This document shows positions 1-8,482 of a DNA stretch of 8,482 bases, piece after piece. Both the position numbers and the translations under genes were made by a program. The notes beneath the pieces were generated by a model. The model ran no database searches. It was not told the DNA's origin and was given only the letters and a program-made list of their open reading frames with translations. The first letter of the stretch is position 1. The number at the start of each line of letters is the position of its first letter. This DNA is from a virus (Duplodnaviria; Heunggongvirae; Uroviricota; Caudoviricetes), in IMG/VR virus record IMGVR_UViG_2693429728_000003, positions 1 through 8,482 of that record; one strand, 5' to 3'.

Positions 1-1
1 G

Positions 2-610
2 CTGGCAGGCAAGATGGCGCTGTATGCCGACGTTGAGCCAACGGAGTCCCTGGTGGAACTGGTGAAAAAAGGCCAGAAATTATTCACCTCTATGGAAGTC
101 AGCCCGAAGTTTGCTGATACGGGCAAAGCCTACCTGGTCGGCCTGGCTGCCACTGATGATCCCGCCAGTCTGGGTACGGAAATGCTGACATTCAGCGCCA
201 GTGCAGCCCATAACCCGCTGGCAAACCGCAAGCAGAATCCTGCCAATCTTTTTACCGCTGCAGAGGAAACGGTGATCGAACTGGAAGAAATCCAGGGGGA
301 CAAGCCGTCCCTGTTTGCCCGTGTCACGGCGCTGTTTACCAAAAAAGAGCAGTCAGACGATGCCCGGTTCTCTGATGTGCATAAGGCCGTGGAGCTGGTC
401 GCCACTGAGCAGCAAAACCTGAGTGCGCGCACCGAAAAATCCCTGTCTGAACAGGAAGAACGCCTGTCTGAGCTGGAGACTGCTCTGCAGGAGCAGCAAA
501 CCGCCTTTAACGAACTGGTGAATAAGCTGAGTCATGAAGACAGCCGCCAGGACTACCGCCAGCGTGCAACAGGCGGTAACGCCCCCGCTGACACTCTGAC
601 CAATTGCTGA
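2..610 (+). CDS. O: Capsid scaffolding protein gpO, C-terminal part (5' end lies outside the window)
   Basis: Open frame runs from the window edge with no upstream stop; TGA at 608-610. The translated C-terminus (acidic, coiled-coil-like EQEERLSELETALQEQQ) resembles the P2 gpO scaffold as I recall it, and the gene sits immediately upstream of the major capsid gene as in P2. Confidence 0.8.
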   Translation: MAGKMALYADVEPTESLVELVKKGQKLFTSMEVSPKFADTGKAYLVGLAATDDPASLGTEMLTFSASAAHNPLANRKQNPANLFTAAEETVIELEEIQGDKPSLFARVTALFTKKEQSDDARFSDVHKAVELVATEQQNLSARTEKSLSEQEERLSELETALQEQQTAFNELVNKLSHEDSRQDYRQRATGGNAPADTLTNC

Positions 611-626
611 TGGAGCACAAAACCTG

Positions 627-1685
627 ATGAAGAAGAATACCCGCTTTGCTTTTAACGCTTACCTGCAGCAGCTGGCGCGTCTGAACGGTGTGGCAGTTGA
701 AGAACTGTCCAGCAAGTTCACCGTGGAGCCGTCTGTACAGCAGACGCTGGAAGACCAGATCCAGCAGTCCGCCGCTTTCCTGACGCTGATTAACGTCACG
801 CCTGTGACTGAGCAATCCGGTCAACTGCTGGGGCTGGGTGTTGGCAGCACCATTGCCGGAACCACTGATACCACCGCGAAAGAGCGTGAGCCTGTCGATC
901 CGACGCTGATGGTCGATGTGGAATATAAATGCGAGCAGACCAACTTTGACACGGTGCTGACCTACGCGAAGCTGGACCTGTGGGCGAAGTTTCAGGATTT
1001 CCAGGTGCGTATCCGTAACGCCATCGTGAAACGTCAGGCACTGGACCGCATCATGATCGGCTTTAACGGCGTGAAGCGTGCGAAAACCTCCAACCGCAGC
1101 GAAAACCCGCTGCTGCAGGATGTGAACAAAGGCTGGCTGCAGAAAATCCGTGAGGATGCACCGGATCACGTCATGGGCAGCTCCACCACGGGCGGTGAAA
1201 CCACACCGGGTGCGGTGAAAGTCGGGAAAGGTGGCGAATATGCCAACCTGGACGCAGTGGTGATGGATGCCGTCAATGAGCTTATCGACGTGGTCTACCA
1301 GGACGATGACGATCTGGTGGTGATTTGCGGGCGTGAACTGCTGTCTGACAAGTATTTCCCGCTGGTTAACAAAGAGCAGGAAAACAGTGAAAAACTGGCT
1401 GCCGATATGATCATCAGTCAGAAACGCATGGGTGGCTTGCAGGCCGTGCGTGCACCGTTCTTCCCGCCGAATGCACTGCTGATCACCCGTCTGGATAACC
1501 TGTCCATCTACTGGCAGGAAGACACCCGCCGCCGTTCAGTTATCGACAACCCGAAACGTGACCGGATTGAAAACTTTGAATCCGTTAACGAAGCCTATGT
1601 GGTTGAGGACTACCGCTGTGCCGCACTTGTGGAAAACATCCAGATTGGCGACTTCAGCGCCGCCGCAGCAGAAACCGGAGCGTAA
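627..1685 (+). CDS. N: Major capsid protein gpN
   Basis: 352-aa ORF with ATG at 627 and GGAG at 612-615. Strong recalled similarity to P2 gpN along its length (e.g. RFAFNAYLQQ, LDLWAKFQDFQVRIRNAIVKRQ, LAADMIISQKR, YVVEDY). Position between O and M. Confidence 0.93.
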   Translation: MKKNTRFAFNAYLQQLARLNGVAVEELSSKFTVEPSVQQTLEDQIQQSAAFLTLINVTPVTEQSGQLLGLGVGSTIAGTTDTTAKEREPVDPTLMVDVEYKCEQTNFDTVLTYAKLDLWAKFQDFQVRIRNAIVKRQALDRIMIGFNGVKRAKTSNRSENPLLQDVNKGWLQKIREDAPDHVMGSSTTGGETTPGAVKVGKGGEYANLDAVVMDAVNELIDVVYQDDDDLVVICGRELLSDKYFPLVNKEQENSEKLAADMIISQKRMGGLQAVRAPFFPPNALLITRLDNLSIYWQEDTRRRSVIDNPKRDRIENFESVNEAYVVEDYRCAALVENIQIGDFSAAAAETGA

Positions 1686-1688
1686 TCC

Positions 1689-2339
1689 ATGAGCCTGAGT
1701 CCCGCACGGCAGCATCGCCTGCGCGTTCAGGCTGAACAGGCCGCCCGCGAGGGCGGCAGTGTTCGCCACGCGTCGGGCTATGACCTGATGCTGCTGCAAC
1801 TGGCGGAAGACCGCCGCCGTCTCAAGGGTGTTCAGTCCACGGTCAAAAAAGCGGAAATCAAGGTGGAGCTGCTGCCGAAGTACGCCGCCTGGGCAGAGGG
1901 CGTCCTGGCTGCCGGAGGCACTCAACAGGATGACGTGCTGATGTACGTGATGCTGTGGCGCATTGATGCCGGAGATTATGCCGGGGCGCTGGAGATCGGA
2001 TGTCATGCCCTGCGTCATGGCTGGGTGATGCCACTGGGTAACCGCAATGTGCAGACCGTGCTGGCAGAGGAAATGGCAGACGCGGCGCAGAGCGCAATGC
2101 TTGCCGCCACCGGCTTTGATGCCGATCTGTTGCTGCAGACGCTGGAGCTGACAGACGGTCTGGATATGCCGGACCAGTCACGGGCGCGTCTGCATAAAGC
2201 GATTGGCGCTGTCCTGAGTGAAAGCAATCCGGCTTCCGCCCTTAACCATCTCAACCATGCGTTGCAGCTCGATCCCCGCTGTGGCGTGAAAAAAGACAAA
2301 CAGCAGCTGGAGCGCAGACTGCGCAATGACAGCCGCTGA
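1689..2339 (+). CDS. M: Terminase small (endonuclease) subunit gpM
   Basis: 216-aa ORF starting 4 nt after the N stop. Recalled similarity to P2 gpM (LLPKY, QDDVLMYVMLWRIDAGDYAGALEIG, LELTDGLDMPD, GVKKD). Synteny N-M-L. Confidence 0.87.
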   Translation: MSLSPARQHRLRVQAEQAAREGGSVRHASGYDLMLLQLAEDRRRLKGVQSTVKKAEIKVELLPKYAAWAEGVLAAGGTQQDDVLMYVMLWRIDAGDYAGALEIGCHALRHGWVMPLGNRNVQTVLAEEMADAAQSAMLAATGFDADLLLQTLELTDGLDMPDQSRARLHKAIGAVLSESNPASALNHLNHALQLDPRCGVKKDKQQLERRLRNDSR

Positions 2340-2344
2340 CAGAA

Positions 2345-2369
2345 CGTGCCCCCGCGCACGGGCGGCACG
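2345..2369 (+). other. GC-rich stem-loop in the M-L intergenic region
   Basis: cgtgcc(2345-2350)/ggcacg(2364-2369) outer stem and cccg(2351-2354)/cggg(2359-2362) inner stem around a 4-nt loop, with one bulged C. It is not followed by a U-tract, so not a canonical intrinsic terminator. Confidence 0.3.
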
Positions 2370-2434
2370 GGGTGGCGAAAGGCACAGCCTCATCAAAACC
2401 CCGTCCACCGCCCTCTATTTCAGGAGAAAGCAGC

Positions 2435-2899
2435 ATGAAGTTTGTTGCGCCAGAACAGGCACCGGAACAGGCGGAAATCATCAGAAATACACCGTTCTGG
2501 CCTGATGTGGACCTGTCGGAGTTTCGCAGCGTGATGCGCACTGACGGCACGGTGACGCAGCCGCGTTTAAAGCAGGTTGCGCTGTCGGCAATTTCGGAGG
2601 TCAACGCAGAGCTGTATGAGTTTCGCAGACGCCAGCAGATGCTGGGGTATGCCTCGCTGGCAGAGGTTCCGGCGGAACAGCTGGACGGGAAAAGTGAGCG
2701 CATTCAGCACTATTTCAACGCGGTTTACTGCTGGGCACGCGCCATGCTCAACGAACGATACCAGGACTATGACGCCACGGCATCCGGTGTGAAGCGAGGC
2801 GAGGAACTGGCGGAATCCAGCGGTGATTTGTGGCGTGACGCCCGCTGGGCCATCAGCCGGGTGCAGGATGCGCCGCACTGTACAGTGGAGCTTATCTGA
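2435..2899 (+). CDS. L: Head completion/stabilisation protein gpL
   Basis: ATG at 2435 preceded by AGGAG (2422-2426) at 8-nt spacing; the longer GTG-initiated frame from 2372 has no comparable RBS. Product resembles P2 gpL (NTPFWPD, NAELYEF, DLWRDARWAISRVQ). Stop TGA 2897-2899 overlaps the next start (ATGA). Confidence 0.85.
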   Translation: MKFVAPEQAPEQAEIIRNTPFWPDVDLSEFRSVMRTDGTVTQPRLKQVALSAISEVNAELYEFRRRQQMLGYASLAEVPAEQLDGKSERIQHYFNAVYCWARAMLNERYQDYDATASGVKRGEELAESSGDLWRDARWAISRVQDAPHCTVELI

Positions 2900-3102
2900 T
2901 GAAAGTGCGTGCGCATCAGTATGACACGGTGGACGCGCTTTGCTGGCGTCATTACGGGCGCACGCAGGGTGTCACGGAGCAGGTACTGAAGGCAAATCCG
3001 GGGCTTGCCGAATATGGCCCCTTTTTACCTCACGGGCTGCAGGTGGAGCTGCCGGACATTCCGACCACCACCACCGTGCAGACCGTCCAGCTATGGGACT
3101 GA
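2899..3102 (+). CDS. X: Tail protein gpX (small LysM-like tail component)
   Basis: 67-aa ORF coupled to L by an ATGA overlap. Recalled similarity to P2 gpX (DTVDALCWRHYGRT, ANPGLAE, LPHGLQVELPD). Confidence 0.85.
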   Translation: MKVRAHQYDTVDALCWRHYGRTQGVTEQVLKANPGLAEYGPFLPHGLQVELPDIPTTTTVQTVQLWD

Positions 3103-3105
3103 ATT

Positions 3106-3321
3106 ATGACGCTTGAGCGAATCAGCGCCTTTATCACGTATTGCATCGCCGTCGTGCTGGCCTGGCTGGGCGATTTGTCCATCAAGGATGCCTCAACGCT
3201 GGGCGGCCTGATGATTGGTGTGCTGATGCTGGCTATCAACTGGTACTACAAACACAAAGCCTACCAGCTTCTGCGCGACGGGCAGATCTCGCGGGAGGAC
3301 TATGAATCCATCAATCGTTAA
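3106..3321 (+). CDS. Holin, class II topology (two predicted TMDs), possible pinholin
   Basis: 71-aa product with two hydrophobic segments (ISAFITYCIAVVLAWLG and LGGLMIGVLMLAINWYY, the second containing a GxxxG motif) and a charged C-terminal tail. It lies immediately upstream of, and overlaps by 20 nt, the endolysin gene, at the position of P2 Y. Confidence 0.72.
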   Translation: MTLERISAFITYCIAVVLAWLGDLSIKDASTLGGLMIGVLMLAINWYYKHKAYQLLRDGQISREDYESINR

Positions 3322-3814
3322 ACGCTGCCTTGTCGGGGCCGTGCTGGCTATTGCTGCCACGCTGCCGGGTTTTCAGCAGCTTCACACCTCCGTGGAAGGG
3401 CTGAAACTGATTGCCGATTACGAAGGTTGTCGTCTGCAGCCGTATCAGTGCAGCGCGGGTGTCTGGACCGACGGCATTGGTAATACGTCGGGCGTCATTC
3501 CCGGCAAAACCATTACGGAGCGACAGGCAGCAGAAGGGCTGATCTCCAACGTGCTGCGTGTGGAGCGGGCGCTGGAAAGGTGTGTGAAGCAACAGCCGCC
3601 GCAGAAGGTGTATGACGCGGCGGTGTCGTTTGCCTTCAACGTGGGTACGGGCAATGCCTGCAGTTCCACGCTGGTGAAATTGCTCAATCAGCGGCGCTGG
3701 GCGGATGCGTGCCGACAGTTGCCGCGCTGGGTTTATGTAAAAGGTGTGTTTAATCAGGGGCTGGATAACCGCCGTGCGCGGGAGATGGCCTGGTGTTTAC
3801 AGGGAGCAAACTGA
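3302..3814 (+). CDS. SAR endolysin (T4/P1 lysozyme family, glycoside hydrolase 24-like)
   Basis: 170-aa product. N-terminal weakly hydrophobic Gly/Ala-rich segment (CLVGAVLAIAATLPGF) typical of a signal-anchor-release domain. Catalytic signature E41-x8-C50-x5-T56 (YEGCRLQPYQCSAGVWTDG) plus Cys9 and Cys43, matching the P1 Lyz arrangement. GGAGG at 3294-3298 before ATG 3302. Confidence 0.85.
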   Translation: MNPSIVKRCLVGAVLAIAATLPGFQQLHTSVEGLKLIADYEGCRLQPYQCSAGVWTDGIGNTSGVIPGKTITERQAAEGLISNVLRVERALERCVKQQPPQKVYDAAVSFAFNVGTGNACSSTLVKLLNQRRWADACRQLPRWVYVKGVFNQGLDNRRAREMAWCLQGAN

Positions 3815-3815
3815 A

Positions 3816-4193
3816 ATGAAAAAGAAATTAATCAGCGGACTGTTTCTGATGTTATGGATGGCGCTGTTAATCGCAGCAATTGTGTATCCGCAGGGGATTT
3901 TTCCGGTACTGGAAGCGTCCGGCGTTTGGGTAGCCTGTTTGCTGACATGGGCGGTAATTCCGGTAGCACTGGCTGCGTTAATTAAGAATGGCCCGCTCTG
4001 GCAGGAGTTAAGGGCATCTTTGCTGAAGACAATTACCCGAAAAGAAAACGTATTTACCAGTTGGGTGATGCGATTGCTGATTGTTGTAAGTCTCGCCTGG
4101 ACGGGGTGGGCTATTACCCTGGTCTTTTATCTACTGACCGTTATTGCCTTCTGGATCACCCGTAATCAGATGGCGCAACAGGTAGCCGCATGA
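3816..4193 (+). CDS. lysA: LysA-like polytopic membrane protein (lysis timing/regulation)
   Basis: ATG at 3816 with GGGAG about 9 nt upstream; 125 aa with about 4 predicted TM helices. Located between the endolysin and spanin genes as P2 lysA. The track ORF from 3744 overlaps the endolysin and lacks an RBS. Confidence 0.62.
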   Translation: MKKKLISGLFLMLWMALLIAAIVYPQGIFPVLEASGVWVACLLTWAVIPVALAALIKNGPLWQELRASLLKTITRKENVFTSWVMRLLIVVSLAWTGWAITLVFYLLTVIAFWITRNQMAQQVAA

Positions 4194-4618
4194 ACCGGTT
4201 GCTGCTGGTTGTGCTGGCGTTATTACTGGCGGCGCTGGGCTGGCAGACGTGGCGGATGGCTGATGCCAGCCAGACCATTAGCACGCAGGCAGACGAGCTG
4301 CAGAGCAAAAGCCAGGCACTGGCAAAGAGCAACAGCCAGCTTATCAGCCTGTCCATTCTGACTGAAACCAATAACCGGGAGCAGGCGCGGCTCTATGCCG
4401 AAGCAGAACAGACCAGCGCGCTGCTGAGACAACGACAACACCGGATCGAGGAACTGAAACGTGAGAACGAGGATTTACGCCGCTGGGCTGATACTCCTTT
4501 GCCTGCTGACATTATCCGGCTGCGGGAACGTCCGACGCTCACCGGAGGTGCAGCTTACCGTCAGTGGTTGTCCGCGAGTGACGCCGTGTCGGCTGGATCA
4601 GGCAGCGCCGCGCACTAA
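4190..4618 (+). CDS. lysB: LysB-like inner-membrane spanin (Rz equivalent)
   Basis: ATGA overlap with lysA. 142-aa product with one N-terminal TM helix (LLLVVLALLLAALGW) followed by a long charged, helical periplasmic region (ELQSKSQALAKSNSQL, RIEELKRENEDLRRW), the typical i-spanin architecture. Confidence 0.72.
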   Translation: MNRLLLVVLALLLAALGWQTWRMADASQTISTQADELQSKSQALAKSNSQLISLSILTETNNREQARLYAEAEQTSALLRQRQHRIEELKRENEDLRRWADTPLPADIIRLRERPTLTGGAAYRQWLSASDAVSAGSGSAAH

Positions 4619-4751
4619 CGGTGATCTGAACGCGTTGCTGGATGAAACGGAGGCCGCCTGGGCGGTCTGTGCAGACAAAGTGGACATGATTATTGCGTGT
4701 CAGGAGCGAAACAGTGAACAAACCACAATCCCTGCGCCACGCCCTCAATAA
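4461..4751 (+). CDS. lysC: LysC-like outer-membrane lipoprotein spanin (Rz1 equivalent)
   Basis: +1-frame ORF starting inside lysB. GTG at 4461 preceded by GAGGA (4448-4452) at 8-nt spacing. Signal peptide with lipobox LSGC (Cys21) and a proline-rich C-terminus (TIPAPRPQ). It overlaps the 3' part of lysB and extends past it (overlapped rather than fully embedded). Confidence 0.7.
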   Translation: MRTRIYAAGLILLCLLTLSGCGNVRRSPEVQLTVSGCPRVTPCRLDQAAPRTNGDLNALLDETEAAWAVCADKVDMIIACQERNSEQTTIPAPRPQ

Positions 4752-5145
4752 AGCGGTGCCTTATGTCCGCAATAACCCGGACAAACTGCATCTGTTTGTG
4801 GATAACGGTTCGCTGGTTGCCACGGGGGCCAGCTCCATGTCGTGGGAGTACCGTTACACCCTGAACGCGGTGATTGAGGATTTCAGCGGCGACCAGAATC
4901 TGCTGATGGCCCCGGTTTTGCTGTGGCTGCGGGATAACCAGCCCGATGCCATCAATAACCCGGCGTTACGGGAAAAGTTATTCACCTTTGAGGTGGATAT
5001 TCTGCGCAATGATGTCTGTGATATCAGCCTGAACCTGCAACTGACGGAGCGTGTGCTGGTCAGCACTGACGGCAGTGTGTCGAGCGTTGAAGCGATAACG
5101 GAACCCGATGAACCTGAAGAAATGTGGACGGTGAAACGTGGCTGA
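4714..5145 (+). CDS. R: Tail completion protein gpR
   Basis: Recalled similarity to P2 gpR (LHLFVDNGS, RYTLNAVIEDFSGD, PVLLWLRDNQPD, SLNLQLTERVLVS). Preferred start is GTG 4714, preceded by AGGAG (4702-4706) at 7-nt spacing; the track start at 4693 is a TTG without an RBS. Confidence 0.83.
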   Translation: MNKPQSLRHALNKAVPYVRNNPDKLHLFVDNGSLVATGASSMSWEYRYTLNAVIEDFSGDQNLLMAPVLLWLRDNQPDAINNPALREKLFTFEVDILRNDVCDISLNLQLTERVLVSTDGSVSSVEAITEPDEPEEMWTVKRG

Positions 5146-5581
5146 ATTGCAGAAAGTGGACGACTGGCTGAGTGCCTTACTGGCGAATCTGGAGCCAGCT
5201 GCAAGAAGTCGCATGATGCGCCAACTGGCACAGGAGCTGCGCCGGACACAGCAGCAAAACATCAGGATGCAGCGCAATCCAGATGGCAGCAGCTATGAAC
5301 CTCGACGGGTAACAGCACGCAGTAAAAAGGGGCGCATCAAACGTCAGATGTTTGCAAAGCTGCGCACCACAAAATACCTGAAAACTGCAGCTAGCGCCGA
5401 TTCTGCCAGCGTGCAGTTTGAAGGTAAGGTGCAGCACATTGCCCGTGTTCACCATTACGGCCTGCGTGATCGCGTCAGTCGAAAAGGTATTTATACCATC
5501 TATGCGAAAAGGCAGTTATTAGGTTTTAATGTCCAATCTATTGAGTTAATTGAAAGAATGTTCATTAAAAACCTAACTTGA
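5138..5581 (+). CDS. S: Tail completion protein gpS
   Basis: 147-aa ORF overlapping the R stop by 8 nt, GTG start with GGTG 4 nt upstream. Recalled similarity to P2 gpS (DDWLSALLANLEPAAR, QNIRMQRNPDGSSYEPR, IARVHHYGLRDRVSR). The last ~25 codons lie in AT-rich DNA (see findings). Confidence 0.83.
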   Translation: MAELQKVDDWLSALLANLEPAARSRMMRQLAQELRRTQQQNIRMQRNPDGSSYEPRRVTARSKKGRIKRQMFAKLRTTKYLKTAASADSASVQFEGKVQHIARVHHYGLRDRVSRKGIYTIYAKRQLLGFNVQSIELIERMFIKNLT

Positions 5582-5584
5582 TTT

Positions 5585-6604
5585 TTATTTGTTTTCAATT
5601 GAGTTAGATATAGATAGGAATGTGTCCCCTATTTCTATAGATAGTTGTTTAATTAAATTCATGAAAATTAAATTCTCTTCGTTGCAGTCATTTTTCAGTA
5701 GACAGCACGTTGATTGAGTAAGACTAAGGGCTGTAGCATGTGCAGGGTCAACTAATCCGAAATTACTTGGACCTATGTTGATGACGTTCTTCAGGTGATG
5801 GGGTAGTGACAAGCTATTAGTGATTGTTTTTATATTTACATGGATGTTTTGGCATGCCCATTTAAAATATGGGCGCATGTGATCTAATTTAACTTCTTTT
5901 TCAATTGATTTAAAGCTAGCTTTGTGTTTCTTATCAGTTAAAAATGGTGTGGCCCAACCATATTGCGAATCAAAACTTCTGCCATATGTTTTAATGGCTT
6001 TATCGAACAAGTCTGTTAATTCTCTGGCCTCTTCATTACTGGGCCCTTTCTCTTGAAGCCTGCTTTCATACTTTTTATGAGACATCATTAGATAATAGCT
6101 ATCATAAATTTCATGTGCTAAAAATATTTCTGAGCATTTAGGACCATGCTTGTCGATGAAATGTAGTGTTACATTTGTTTCATGCAGTGCTCTCCATCTT
6201 GCATGGGCTGCGTCAGGAAATCCATTTTTTAATAGACATAAAATCTCGTTAGAAATTGCACATGCCTTTGCGTGTAATCTAATTAGTAATTGCAAATGGT
6301 TGTTTGTGTCGGTGTCTTTATCTTGTTGTAAGCTTGTACTATATTTAGAACCTTGATTAATACATAACTCTAACAACAACTCTAATAATCCAAAACCATC
6401 TCTCCAAATATTAATATGTCTTTTTATGAAATTTTGATGTTCTTGTTCATTTTGGGCCAGTAATTCTGCTTTTTTTTCTTTAAATTCCAATATGTATTCA
6501 TTTGCTTTGAAGTCTATGAACTCCCAGTATAGCTTTTCAAAATTTTCTCTGGTTGCATCGGGAAGACTGTTTTTATTTGAGCTTAACCATTCTTTAAAAT
6601 CCAT
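5585..6604 (-). CDS. Hypothetical protein encoded in the AT-rich S-V island; candidate moron (possible defense or superinfection-exclusion function)
   Basis: Single uninterrupted 339-aa reverse-strand ORF that fills the AT-rich island. Start ATG (reverse complement of 6602-6604) preceded by AGGGGG about 6 nt upstream on the minus strand. No TM segments or Walker motif; predicted largely helical. Contains an R-x4-H motif (RWRALH, aa 136-141). I recognise no family from sequence alone. Confidence 0.78.
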   Translation of the reverse strand: MDFKEWLSSNKNSLPDATRENFEKLYWEFIDFKANEYILEFKEKKAELLAQNEQEHQNFIKRHINIWRDGFGLLELLLELCINQGSKYSTSLQQDKDTDTNNHLQLLIRLHAKACAISNEILCLLKNGFPDAAHARWRALHETNVTLHFIDKHGPKCSEIFLAHEIYDSYYLMMSHKKYESRLQEKGPSNEEARELTDLFDKAIKTYGRSFDSQYGWATPFLTDKKHKASFKSIEKEVKLDHMRPYFKWACQNIHVNIKTITNSLSLPHHLKNVINIGPSNFGLVDPAHATALSLTQSTCCLLKNDCNEENLIFMNLIKQLSIEIGDTFLSISNSIENK

Positions 6605-6618
6605 TGTGTTCCCCTATT

Positions 6619-6636
6619 TGTACCATGTTTTATACA
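6619..6636 (+). promoter_or_regulatory. TGT-N12-ACA dyad, candidate Ogr/Delta-type activator site of the V late promoter
   Basis: Exact TGT(6619-6621)-N12-ACA(6634-6636) in the 78-bp gap upstream of V, where P2 places late promoter PV. P2-family late promoters carry such a dyad centred near -55. Geometry is imperfect: centre 6627.5 would put the TSS at or just inside the annotated V start. Confidence 0.3.
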
Positions 6637-6650
6637 ACGAACTGTAAGCG

Positions 6651-6679
6651 ATTATATGGTTTTTTTCATTCATATTTAA
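6651..6679 (-). promoter_or_regulatory. Candidate sigma70-type promoter for the island ORF
   Basis: On the minus strand, a perfect TATAAT (reverse complement of 6651-6656) with TTAAAT 17 nt upstream (reverse complement of 6674-6679). Predicted TSS near 6644, giving a ~40-nt leader to the ATG at 6604. Confidence 0.35.
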
Positions 6680-6682
6680 TAT

Positions 6683-7261
6683 ATGGACAAAAATCTAACA
6701 GAAATCATGCGCCTTATCACCAACCTGATCCGCACTGGTGTAGTCACCGAAGTGGACCGGGAGAACTGGCTTTGCCGGGTGAAAACGGGCGAGCTTGAAA
6801 CTAACTGGATCAGTTGGCTGACGCTGCGTGCCGGGAATGCCAGGACATGGTGGCGACCATCGGAAGGTGAACAGGTGGTGCTGCTGAGTCTGGGCGGCAA
6901 TCTGGAAACCGCCTTTGCGTTACCCGCCATCTATTCGAATCAGTTCGCGCCACCGTCGACGTCGGCGGACGCCTGCGTGACAGAACATCCTGACGGTGGC
7001 TGGTTTGAATACGAACCCGCCACCGGGCGCTGGTATGTCAGGGGCATCAAATCAATGGTCATTGAGGCCGCTGACAACATCACCATGAAAACCAGTGAGT
7101 TTGTACTGGAGGCTGACCGCACGCGCATTAACAGTGAAGTGGTGATCAATGGTGGCGTTACCCAGGGCGGCGGAGCGATGAGTTCTAACGGGATCGTGGT
7201 TGATGCGCATCAGCATACTGGCGTCCTGAAAGGCGGCGATACAACCGGAGGCCCGGTATGA
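6683..7261 (+). CDS. V: Baseplate spike/assembly protein gpV
   Basis: 192-aa ORF with recalled similarity to P2 gpV (NLIRTGVVTEVD, RAGNARTWWRPSEGEQV, ETAFALPAIYS, glycine-rich C-terminus HQHTGV). No clear SD before ATG 6683; in-frame ATG at 6707 is an alternative start. Confidence 0.85.
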   Translation: MDKNLTEIMRLITNLIRTGVVTEVDRENWLCRVKTGELETNWISWLTLRAGNARTWWRPSEGEQVVLLSLGGNLETAFALPAIYSNQFAPPSTSADACVTEHPDGGWFEYEPATGRWYVRGIKSMVIEAADNITMKTSEFVLEADRTRINSEVVINGGVTQGGGAMSSNGIVVDAHQHTGVLKGGDTTGGPV

Positions 7262-7617
7262 CGCTTTATATCGGGATGAACAATACCAGCGGCAAAGTCA
7301 TTACTGATATTGACCATCTGCGCCAGTCGGTGCGGGACATTCTGCTGACACCGCAGGGTAGCCGTATTGCCCGTCGTGAATATGGTTCCCTGCTGTCGGC
7401 ACTGATAGACCAGCCACAAAATCCGGCATTACGTCTGCAGGTCATGTCGGCAGTGTATGTGGCGCTTAGTCGTTGGGAGCCACGGCTGACGCTGGATTCC
7501 ATCACCATCAACAGCAATTTTGACGGTTCAATGATGGTGGAGCTGACCGGGCGGCGTAATAACGGTGTGCCTGTTTCCCTTTCCGTATCAACAGGAGCAG
7601 AGAATGGCAGTGATTGA
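7258..7617 (+). CDS. W: Baseplate protein gpW (GPW/gp25 family)
   Basis: 119-aa ORF coupled to V by an ATGA overlap. Recalled similarity to P2 gpW (SVRDILLTPQGSRIARREYGS, LSRWEPRL). Confidence 0.87.
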   Translation: MTLYIGMNNTSGKVITDIDHLRQSVRDILLTPQGSRIARREYGSLLSALIDQPQNPALRLQVMSAVYVALSRWEPRLTLDSITINSNFDGSMMVELTGRRNNGVPVSLSVSTGAENGSD

Positions 7618-8482
7618 TCTTTCGCAGTTGCCTGCACCGCAGATTGTGGATGTGCCGGACTTTGAGACGCTGCTTGCCGAACGCAAGGCAGAATTTGTGG
7701 CACTTCATCCGAAAGATGAGCAGGAAGCAGTGATGCGTACGCTGGAACTTGAATCTGAACCCGTCACCAAATTGTTGCAGGAGAACGCTTACCGTGAGTT
7801 GCTTCTGCGCCAGCGCATTAACGAAGCCGCGCAGGCTGTGATGGTGGCTTACGCGATGGGCGGCGATCTTGACCAGCTCGCTGCCAACTACAACGTGAAA
7901 CGCCTGACGGTGACGCCTGCTGATAATGACGCTGTGCCACCCGTTGCGGCTGTGATGGAAAGCGATGAAGCGTTACGCCTGCGTGTGCCTGCAGCCTTTG
8001 AAGGGCTTTCAGTTGCGGGGCCAACTGCAGCTTATGAATTTCATGCCCGAAGCGCCGACGGTCGGGTGGCGGATGCCAGTGCAACCAGCCCGGCACCTGC
8101 AGAGGTGGTGCTGACTGTCCTTAGCCGCGAAGGCAATGGAACTGCAGAAAAAGACCTGCTGGACGTGGTGGAAAAAGCTCTGAACAGTGAGAACGTCCGC
8201 CCAGTGGCTGACCGTCTTACGGTTCGCAGTGCAGAAATCATCCCGTATCGCGTGGAAGCCACCATTTTTCTATATCCGGGACCGGAAGCAGAGCCGGTAA
8301 TGGCAGCGGCAAAAGCCAGCCTGCAGAAGTACATCGCCAGTCAGACGCGTCTTGGTCGGGATATTCGCCGTAGCGCCATCTTTGCCGCCCTGCATGTTGA
8401 GGGGGTGCAGCGTGTGGAGCTGGCTTCTCCTCTGGCGGATGTGGTCCTGAACAAAACACAGGCGGCATCATGTACGCAGTGG
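7604..8482 (+). CDS. J: Baseplate assembly protein gpJ, N-terminal part (3' end lies outside the window)
   Basis: Frame opens at ATG 7604 (AGGAG at 7593-7597) and stays open to the window end; translation MAVIDLSQLPAPQIVDVPDFE ... GRDIRRSAIFAALHVEGVQRVELASPLADVVLN strongly resembles P2 gpJ. It is absent from the ORF track, presumably because no stop falls in the window. Confidence 0.87.
   Translation, partial: MAVIDLSQLPAPQIVDVPDFETLLAERKAEFVALHPKDEQEAVMRTLELESEPVTKLLQENAYRELLLRQRINEAAQAVMVAYAMGGDLDQLAANYNVKRLTVTPADNDAVPPVAAVMESDEALRLRVPAAFEGLSVAGPTAAYEFHARSADGRVADASATSPAPAEVVLTVLSREGNGTAEKDLLDVVEKALNSENVRPVADRLTVRSAEIIPYRVEATIFLYPGPEAEPVMAAAKASLQKYIASQTRLGRDIRRSAIFAALHVEGVQRVELASPLADVVLNKTQAASCTQW

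Follow-up and report, generated by a model that had tools for sequence, protein, structure and literature searches.

The late region of a P2-like prophage carries, in the slot between its genes S and V, a single low-GC gene that encodes a protein of the DUF5677 family. Guided by genomic context, on which the defence reading rests, we favour the view that it is a stand-alone anti-phage protein, acting by superinfection exclusion or abortive infection (Abi) and made by the lysogen, and we regard that view as evenly poised. The window is the whole stretch of 8,482 nt analysed (positions 1 to 8,482 of IMG/VR record IMGVR_UViG_2693429728_000003), in which the prophage late genes run along the plus strand in the order partial scaffold, capsid N, terminase M, L, X, holin, lysozyme, LysA/B/C, R, S, V, W and J, the gene names being taken from the annotation of a near-identical prophage. 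Gene S stops at 5581 and gene V starts at 6683; between them stands one minus-strand open reading frame (ORF), at 5585-6604, whose GC content of 0.334 (0.294 at third codon positions, GC3) is flanked by values of 0.569 and 0.566. The ORF list agrees exactly with the initial annotation, which had described a 339-amino-acid (aa) product as the sole cargo of an island; the other ORFs inside the island are antisense and only 51-68 aa long. Also borne out is its description of a soluble, mostly alpha-helical protein, as the 339-aa sequence contains no P-loop motif and no transmembrane (TM) segment (the highest 19-residue Kyte-Doolittle mean is 1.24), and its AlphaFold2 model is entirely helical. 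The gene and the parts of it on which the argument turns are as follows.

5585-6604, minus strand: DUF5677-family ORF, 339 aa, stand-alone cargo with an ATG start (ORF list, Pfam PF18928, RefSeq name)
5807-6289, minus strand: Pfam PF18928 hidden Markov model match, aa 106-266
5705-6319, minus strand: conserved core, aa 96-300 (alignments A1 and A5)
6179-6199, minus strand: codons of R136-W-R-A-L-H141-E142, near the N-terminus of long helix 130-178

Membership of DUF5677 is established. The protein matches Pfam PF18928 with E=1.8e-28 and 100.1 bits against a gathering cut-off of 27.1, as do all 40 of the 40 aligned relatives; it also matches PHROG 27456 (E=5.8e-75), which has no assigned function, and its near-identical counterparts in E. 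coli prophages are labelled 'DUF5677 domain-containing protein' in RefSeq, whereas a search of NCBIfam gave no match. Within both Pfam and PHROG groupings it is a full member that differs in no respect. The initial annotation had placed the protein in no recognised family; the family proves to be a recognised one, albeit uncharacterised, and the profile match is to DUF5677 rather than to any non-defence family. An exhaustive profile search retrieved 3,806 clusters (50% identity) at E<=1e-3, 1,795 of them at E<=1e-30, distributed over Enterobacterales, Vibrionaceae, Shewanella, Bacteroidota, Desulfobacterota, Campylobacterota, Planctomycetes, Saccharibacteria and Actinobacteria, as well as Bacillus phage SPR and haloarchaeal plasmids. 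Only two papers that mention DUF5677 came up in a full-text literature search, and they assign it no function.

The stand-alone architecture is likewise a family trait. Relatives align across 85-100% of the query, most of them having 340-350 aa, and the single-domain form of ~340 aa is common to hundreds of them. A second size class, of ~420 aa, bears an N-terminal extension of ~90 aa; relatives of ~400-450 aa make up about a quarter of those fetched, and in the ones inspected the extension is soluble and has no Pfam match. A Pfam scan of ten long or N-terminally extended members detected no partner domain. An apparent 784-aa fusion in Pseudoduganella (locus L038) was rejected as a long-ORF artefact of a high-GC genome. 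Crude hydropathy flagged 26 proteins, of which two, P0153 and P0181, contain genuine TM segments at the N-terminus; the flagged segments in the others are buried core helices, and those proteins were rejected as membrane proteins. P0153 (840 aa) has a long N-terminal extension with one or two TM-like segments and P0181 (671 aa) one with five, and to judge by sequence these two would be membrane-anchored versions of the DUF5677 domain.

Conservation within the family is sharply uneven. Sixteen positions are invariant in 22 sequences that reach down to 24% identity, namely W67, L124, G128 and A133 together with the twelve family-wide invariants of the core, H111, E120, R136, W137, R138, E142, W217, H255, G278, S280, G283 and P287. 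Mean pairwise identity is 65-72% at aa 96-180 and 215-300 and 45% at aa 181-214, falling to 26% at aa 1-45 and 38% at aa 301-339, a pattern suggestive of an active core that is held constant while the peripheral helices vary. That a polar constellation is strongly conserved to such low identity, with variable termini, counts for a defence function. Four further residues considered for the site (C115, H242, R244 and K248) were rejected, being invariant in close relatives and not family-wide.

The AlphaFold2 model, built with 40 homologues, has a pLDDT of 88.8 and a pTM of 0.82, and its confidence is low solely at aa 241-280; helices span residues 45-66, 68-91, 98-126 and 130-178. A Foldseek search of the model against the PDB and BFVD returned nothing at E<=1e-3, its structural matches being generic helical bundles only, and a PDB sequence search with two profiles gave no meaningful match and hence no solved relative by sequence.

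The DUF5677 gene is a horizontally exchanged accessory gene (a 'moron') whose variable slot is bounded on one side by gene S, the last of the P2 head/lysis/tail-completion operon, and on the other by the P_V baseplate operon. On the mechanism that we propose, the lysogen would make the gene product to exclude competing phages. The product would be a soluble all-alpha protein with an enzyme-like core composed of H111, E120, R136, R138, E142, H255, S280 and three invariant Trp residues, which could form a site that binds and cleaves or modifies nucleic acid or a nucleotide, while the poorly conserved N- and C-terminal helices might tune the trigger. Its most concrete version would be a HEPN-like metal-independent RNase, which is one possibility only. 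More tentatively, and as something possible though short of probable, we suggest that DUF5677 as a whole is a new, widespread single-protein defence family of bacteria and archaea, all-alpha and without a solved relative, whose catalytic constellation H111/E120/R136-W-R138/E142/H255/S280 is not that of HEPN. If so, a new effector chemistry would be present in P2-like prophages, satellite-like islands, lambdoid prophages and SPbeta-like phages.

The S-V slot is an accessory hotspot by each of the features that mark those of P2: it is flanked by core genes, its contents have atypical GC, and it is polymorphic for presence, absence and replacement. The cassette is present in only 4 of 5,426 complete E. 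coli genomes, and the same flanks occur without it in more than 1,000. Elsewhere among E. coli P2-like prophages the slot either stands empty or contains SIR2, TIR, AIPR, FRG, DUF2971, DUF6216 or hypothetical genes. DUF5677 alleles 48-54% identical to that of the window fill the slot, again antiparallel, in P2-like prophages of Salmonella, Pantoea and Winslowiella, whose S and V proteins are 43-85% identical to those of the window. In the Winslowiella prophage (locus L020, 8951-9844) a second ORF, of ~297 aa, lies between the DUF5677 gene and S, so that the slot there holds two cargos.

The P2 prophage carries exclusion genes of its own, Old, Tin and Fun. With these and with the recognisable cargo of the S-V slot (SIR2, TIR, AIPR, FRG and DUF2971) the DUF5677 gene shares its niche, one low-GC gene exchanged at a fixed slot, but its product is unrelated in sequence and fold to any of them, and the positions differ, Old/Tin occupying the A-Q slot, Z/Fun a tail-gene slot and DUF5677 the S-V slot. 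P2 and P4 hotspots have been described as reservoirs of defence systems (PMC13586616), and six of eight randomly picked unknown cargos of the P4 hotspot gave phage protection in that study. It also describes a minor P2 hotspot 'downstream of GpL / within the tail genes' that accounts for 16% of P2 systems; we infer that this is the S-V slot, the text naming neither S nor V. The systems Bandua, Aernus, Toga, Reve, Crouga and Hailong, reported there, resemble the present case in their hotspot-based guilt-by-association logic and in their host and phage system, but come from P4 satellites rather than from the P2 S-V slot, and no DUF5677-like protein appears in their descriptions.

Comparison with an empty-site prophage, that of E. 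coli IAI39, in which a 68-bp spacer separates S from V, delimits what is exchanged: homology ends at about 5488 and resumes at about 6697. The cassette is thus a swap and not a clean insertion, and the ~31 last codons of S and the ~5 first codons of V are variable. The swapped segment, at about 5489-6696, is wider than the cargo ORF that the initial annotation described. Its elements outside the cargo gene are listed here.

5489-5584, plus strand: left end of the cassette, an AT-rich replacement of the last ~31 S codons (homology break against IAI39)
6605-6682, strand not applicable: divergent control region, 78 bp, from the DUF5677 start to the V start (sequence)
6610-6615, minus strand: Shine-Dalgarno AGGGGA (sequence)
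6619-6636, strand not applicable: TGT-N12-ACA dyad TGTACCATGTTTTATACA (sequence; aligns with the dyad of the empty site)
6651-6656, minus strand: candidate -10, a perfect TATAAT, with a poor -35 (by eye)
6683-6696, plus strand: right end of the cassette, where the ~5 initial codons of baseplate gene V depart from the empty-site sequence (IAI39 comparison)

The S stop codon, at 5579-5581, lies 3 nt from the convergent DUF5677 stop codon, and the replacement C-terminus of S (...KRQLLGFN...) is closer to that of the Salmonella S beside a DUF5677 cassette than to its empty-site counterpart, so that part of the adjoining core gene seems to move along with the cargo. An unbroken reading frame is kept by all four E. 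coli alleles examined, the window's own included; they differ at no more than 7 nt, with few nonsynonymous differences, which counts for the favoured reading, and the ratio of nonsynonymous to synonymous polymorphism (pN/pS) is 0.06-0.47, very few differences lying behind it. Among these alleles the cargo gene is 99.3-99.5% identical (<=7/1,020 nt), and the surrounding 3.1 kb (4600-7700) 96.9-97.8% identical, which fits a cassette that spread recently between prophages whose backbones had diverged. Scans of the window revealed no tRNA, and thus no integration-site signature, and no terminator.

The dyad at 6619-6636 is also kept in the Salmonella, Pantoea and Winslowiella cassettes, and we take it to be the Ogr/Delta-responsive element of the P2 late promoter P_V. 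The cargo is thereby placed exactly between two late transcription units. The dyad falls within the putative 5' untranslated region of the DUF5677 gene, and one may speculate that activation of P_V might interfere with transcription of the cargo. The DUF5677 promoter itself is a candidate, and expression in the lysogen is correspondingly a presumption, because the promoter scan did not flag the -10 and other cassettes do not conserve it.

Outside the S-V slot, DUF5677 genes also occur in mobile settings of several kinds. A copy 44% identical to that of the window lies at the cargo end of a satellite-like island with integrase, AlpA and D5 primase genes, adjoining a gene for a 777-aa SEC-C protein. 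In the Enterobacter loci L006-L010 (8001-11533) the SEC-C-motif protein of ~777 aa always follows DUF5677, and is split in L007. The pair may represent a two-gene arrangement specific to that lineage; the SEC-C neighbour occurs in this one island type only and was unseen in the other loci. In Klebsiella the gene follows the replication genes of a lambdoid prophage, and plasmid copies, some of them archaeal, lie among toxin-antitoxin, insertion sequence and reverse-transcriptase genes. In Bacillus phage SPR (locus L018, 5800-8286) the 27%-identical spr_109 is immediately upstream of spr_110, which has a Pfam match to AimR, the arbitrium regulator.

All-against-all clustering of neighbours across 46 non-redundant loci detected no conserved partner gene, the recurrent neighbours being P2 gpS and phage lysozyme, in three loci each, and one small miscellaneous cluster. 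DUF5677 thus does not have the constant companion that would make it part of a two-gene toxin-antitoxin or a multi-gene defence system. What does recur within two genes on either side is defence genes of varied type: Mrr-type nucleases (4), DUF2971 and PDC-S31 (3 each) and Shosta (2), and also PD-Lambda-1, type IIG restriction-modification (R-M), DrmMI, Old, SoFic, PDC-S35 and PDC-S68. DUF2971 and PDC-S31 recur beside DUF5677, and DUF2971 is an alternative cargo of the E. coli slot too. We take this enrichment qualitatively only, because distal genes also match R-M models.

The suggestion of the initial annotation that this is a single-gene defence or Abi candidate accordingly gains good circumstantial support from the S-V hotspot, the diverged alleles in three further genera, the copies in a satellite-like island, a lambdoid prophage and phage SPR, the defence-rich neighbourhoods and the lack of a partner gene. 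A number of observations weigh against it. The single functional test published for a DUF5677 ORF had a negative outcome: an ORF from a lactic acid bacterium, expressed in E. faecalis and challenged with six phages, fell outside the protective set, in which five of nine candidates protected (PMC12632615). The 339-aa protein matched 0 families of PADLOC-DB v2.0 at E<=10, its fold yields no functional lead, and machine-learning predictors score just 15-32% of unknown P2 proteins as defensive (PMC13586616). Some DUF5677 copies sit amid ordinary chromosomal genes, for example in Shewanella, and in the distance control, comprising genes 4.5-8 kb away, matches to type I/II R-M occur as well, in a few loci. 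Finally, a consensus promoter scan found no convincing minus-strand promoter upstream of the gene, and the Salmonella, Pantoea and Winslowiella cassettes do not keep the candidate -10.

Several of these points lend themselves to the alternative that survives best, a minority view that we nonetheless take seriously, in which the gene is a prophage accessory outside defence: a counter-defence (anti-restriction or anti-Abi), anti-satellite, host-fitness or lysogenic-conversion gene that sits in the hotspot merely because any cargo is tolerated there. Such tolerance is apparent from the DUF6216 and hypothetical genes that the slot also holds, and hotspots have been described as mixed-purpose (bioRxiv 10.1101/2024.10.15.618418); the negative phage challenge, the absence of a match to known defence models in PADLOC, the copy beside the arbitrium regulator inside the SPbeta-like phage SPR and the few members fused to TM N-termini also speak for this alternative. 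However, the recognisable cargo of the S-V slot is overwhelmingly of defence type (SIR2, TIR, AIPR, FRG), and elsewhere the neighbours of DUF5677 are defence rather than anti-defence genes. Anti-defence systems are moreover rare in P2 elements, with two types in 28 of 1,511 (PMC13586616). The orientation of the gene, opposed to the late operons, would also suit expression in the lysogen rather than early in the lytic cycle.

The initial annotation had pointed to a more specific identity, a canonical HEPN-superfamily RNase acting as a toxin or Abi protein. R136 and H141 would then be the catalytic pair, placed at the N-terminal end of the final helix in a four-helix bundle, and a dimer would build a composite RNase site that cuts host or phage RNA on infection. 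The motif it named, RWRALH at aa 136-141 (nt 6182-6199), is exactly where it was placed, and is the sole R-x4-6-H match in the protein, beginning ~6 residues into helix 130-178 of the model. The accompanying caution that so short a motif could easily be due to chance holds for the bare R-x4-6-H pattern, which occurs at least once in 76% of shuffles of the 339-aa protein, but not for the motif as conserved: RWRxxHE is found in 261 of 267 relatives and RWRxxYE in 4, the motif being absent in 2. It is this conservation that counts, and not the bare pattern, because the latter is so frequent in shuffles. R136 is invariant in both alignments; H141, likewise invariant in A1, reaches at least 90% conservation in A5, where 2 of 22 sequences have Tyr; both of these retain H111, E120, R136, R138, E142, H255 and S280.

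The near-invariance of the motif speaks for the HEPN reading, and many single-gene Abi proteins are reportedly HEPN. The HEPN Abi and toxin RNases (AbiD/AbiF Abi_2, RnlA/LsoA, HepT) too are all-alpha, often ~300-350 aa long and often stand-alone on mobile elements, and near the N-terminus of a helix they have a conserved Arg and His separated by one helical turn. In the model of the DUF5677 protein three long helices precede the motif helix, an order that would be compatible with a HEPN core. The differences are nevertheless considerable. The Arg of the HEPN motif is said usually to be followed by a polar residue, N, D or H, whereas in DUF5677 it is followed by the invariant Trp137; the His is replaceable by Tyr; and H111, E120, H255, S280 and the three Trp residues are invariants outside any HEPN signature. 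Neither profile nor structural similarity to established HEPN families was detected. None of 40 members matched a HEPN-type Pfam family even weakly, no Abi or HEPN model of PADLOC was hit, the PDB search gave no sequence match, and the structure prediction and Foldseek comparison uncovered no HEPN relative among the generic helical bundles. Alignment to an RnlA profile with hhalign gave a probability of 0.3%, the profile being thin (four close sequences, Neff 1.4) and representing one HEPN family. With the motif as its support, HEPN membership is unproven and, in our judgement, somewhat unlikely, while a HEPN-like way of working is possible.

That the ORF is a functionless passenger or a mis-called frame in AT-rich foreign DNA, as its low GC, the lack of a detected terminator or strong consensus promoter and the absence of a functional annotation might suggest, is scarcely credible and is effectively refuted by conservation, given the frame intact in 4/4 alleles, the ~3,800 clusters of full-length homologues with 16 invariant positions down to 24% identity, the confidently predicted model and a Pfam match far over threshold.

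Returning to the stand-alone anti-phage protein that we favour, the finding would not be strange in kind, as unknown P2 hotspot cargo is already a known source of new systems; the DUF5677 family is large and structurally orphan. Should the protein be protective, a function would be assigned to a large orphan Pfam family, and a new single-gene model could be added to PADLOC and DefenseFinder. The P2-like S-V junction would moreover be documented as a defence slot in which each cassette brings its own P_V promoter and 3' end of S, which would bear on the way in which recombination within neighbouring core genes exchanges hotspot cargo. The 16 invariant positions, seven of them polar, and the lack of a structural relative suggest an effector chemistry not yet catalogued. 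Should it not be protective, it would be one more uncharacterised moron.

Accessory cargo is not confined to the S-V slot in the prophage of E. coli EcPNK004 (locus L001). Its A-Q (old/tin) hotspot holds a hypothetical gene and a gene for a 550-aa P-loop NTPase, a Dam methylase gene adjoins one of the PAPS-reductase family, and a gene for a reverse-transcriptase-domain protein follows ogr, beside ssrA (coordinates listed jointly as 7698-10204, 2656-4511 and 33809-34582). Within the window, the spanin genes LysB (4190-4618) and LysC (4461-4751) overlap out of frame, as is ordinary for P2-like lysis cassettes.
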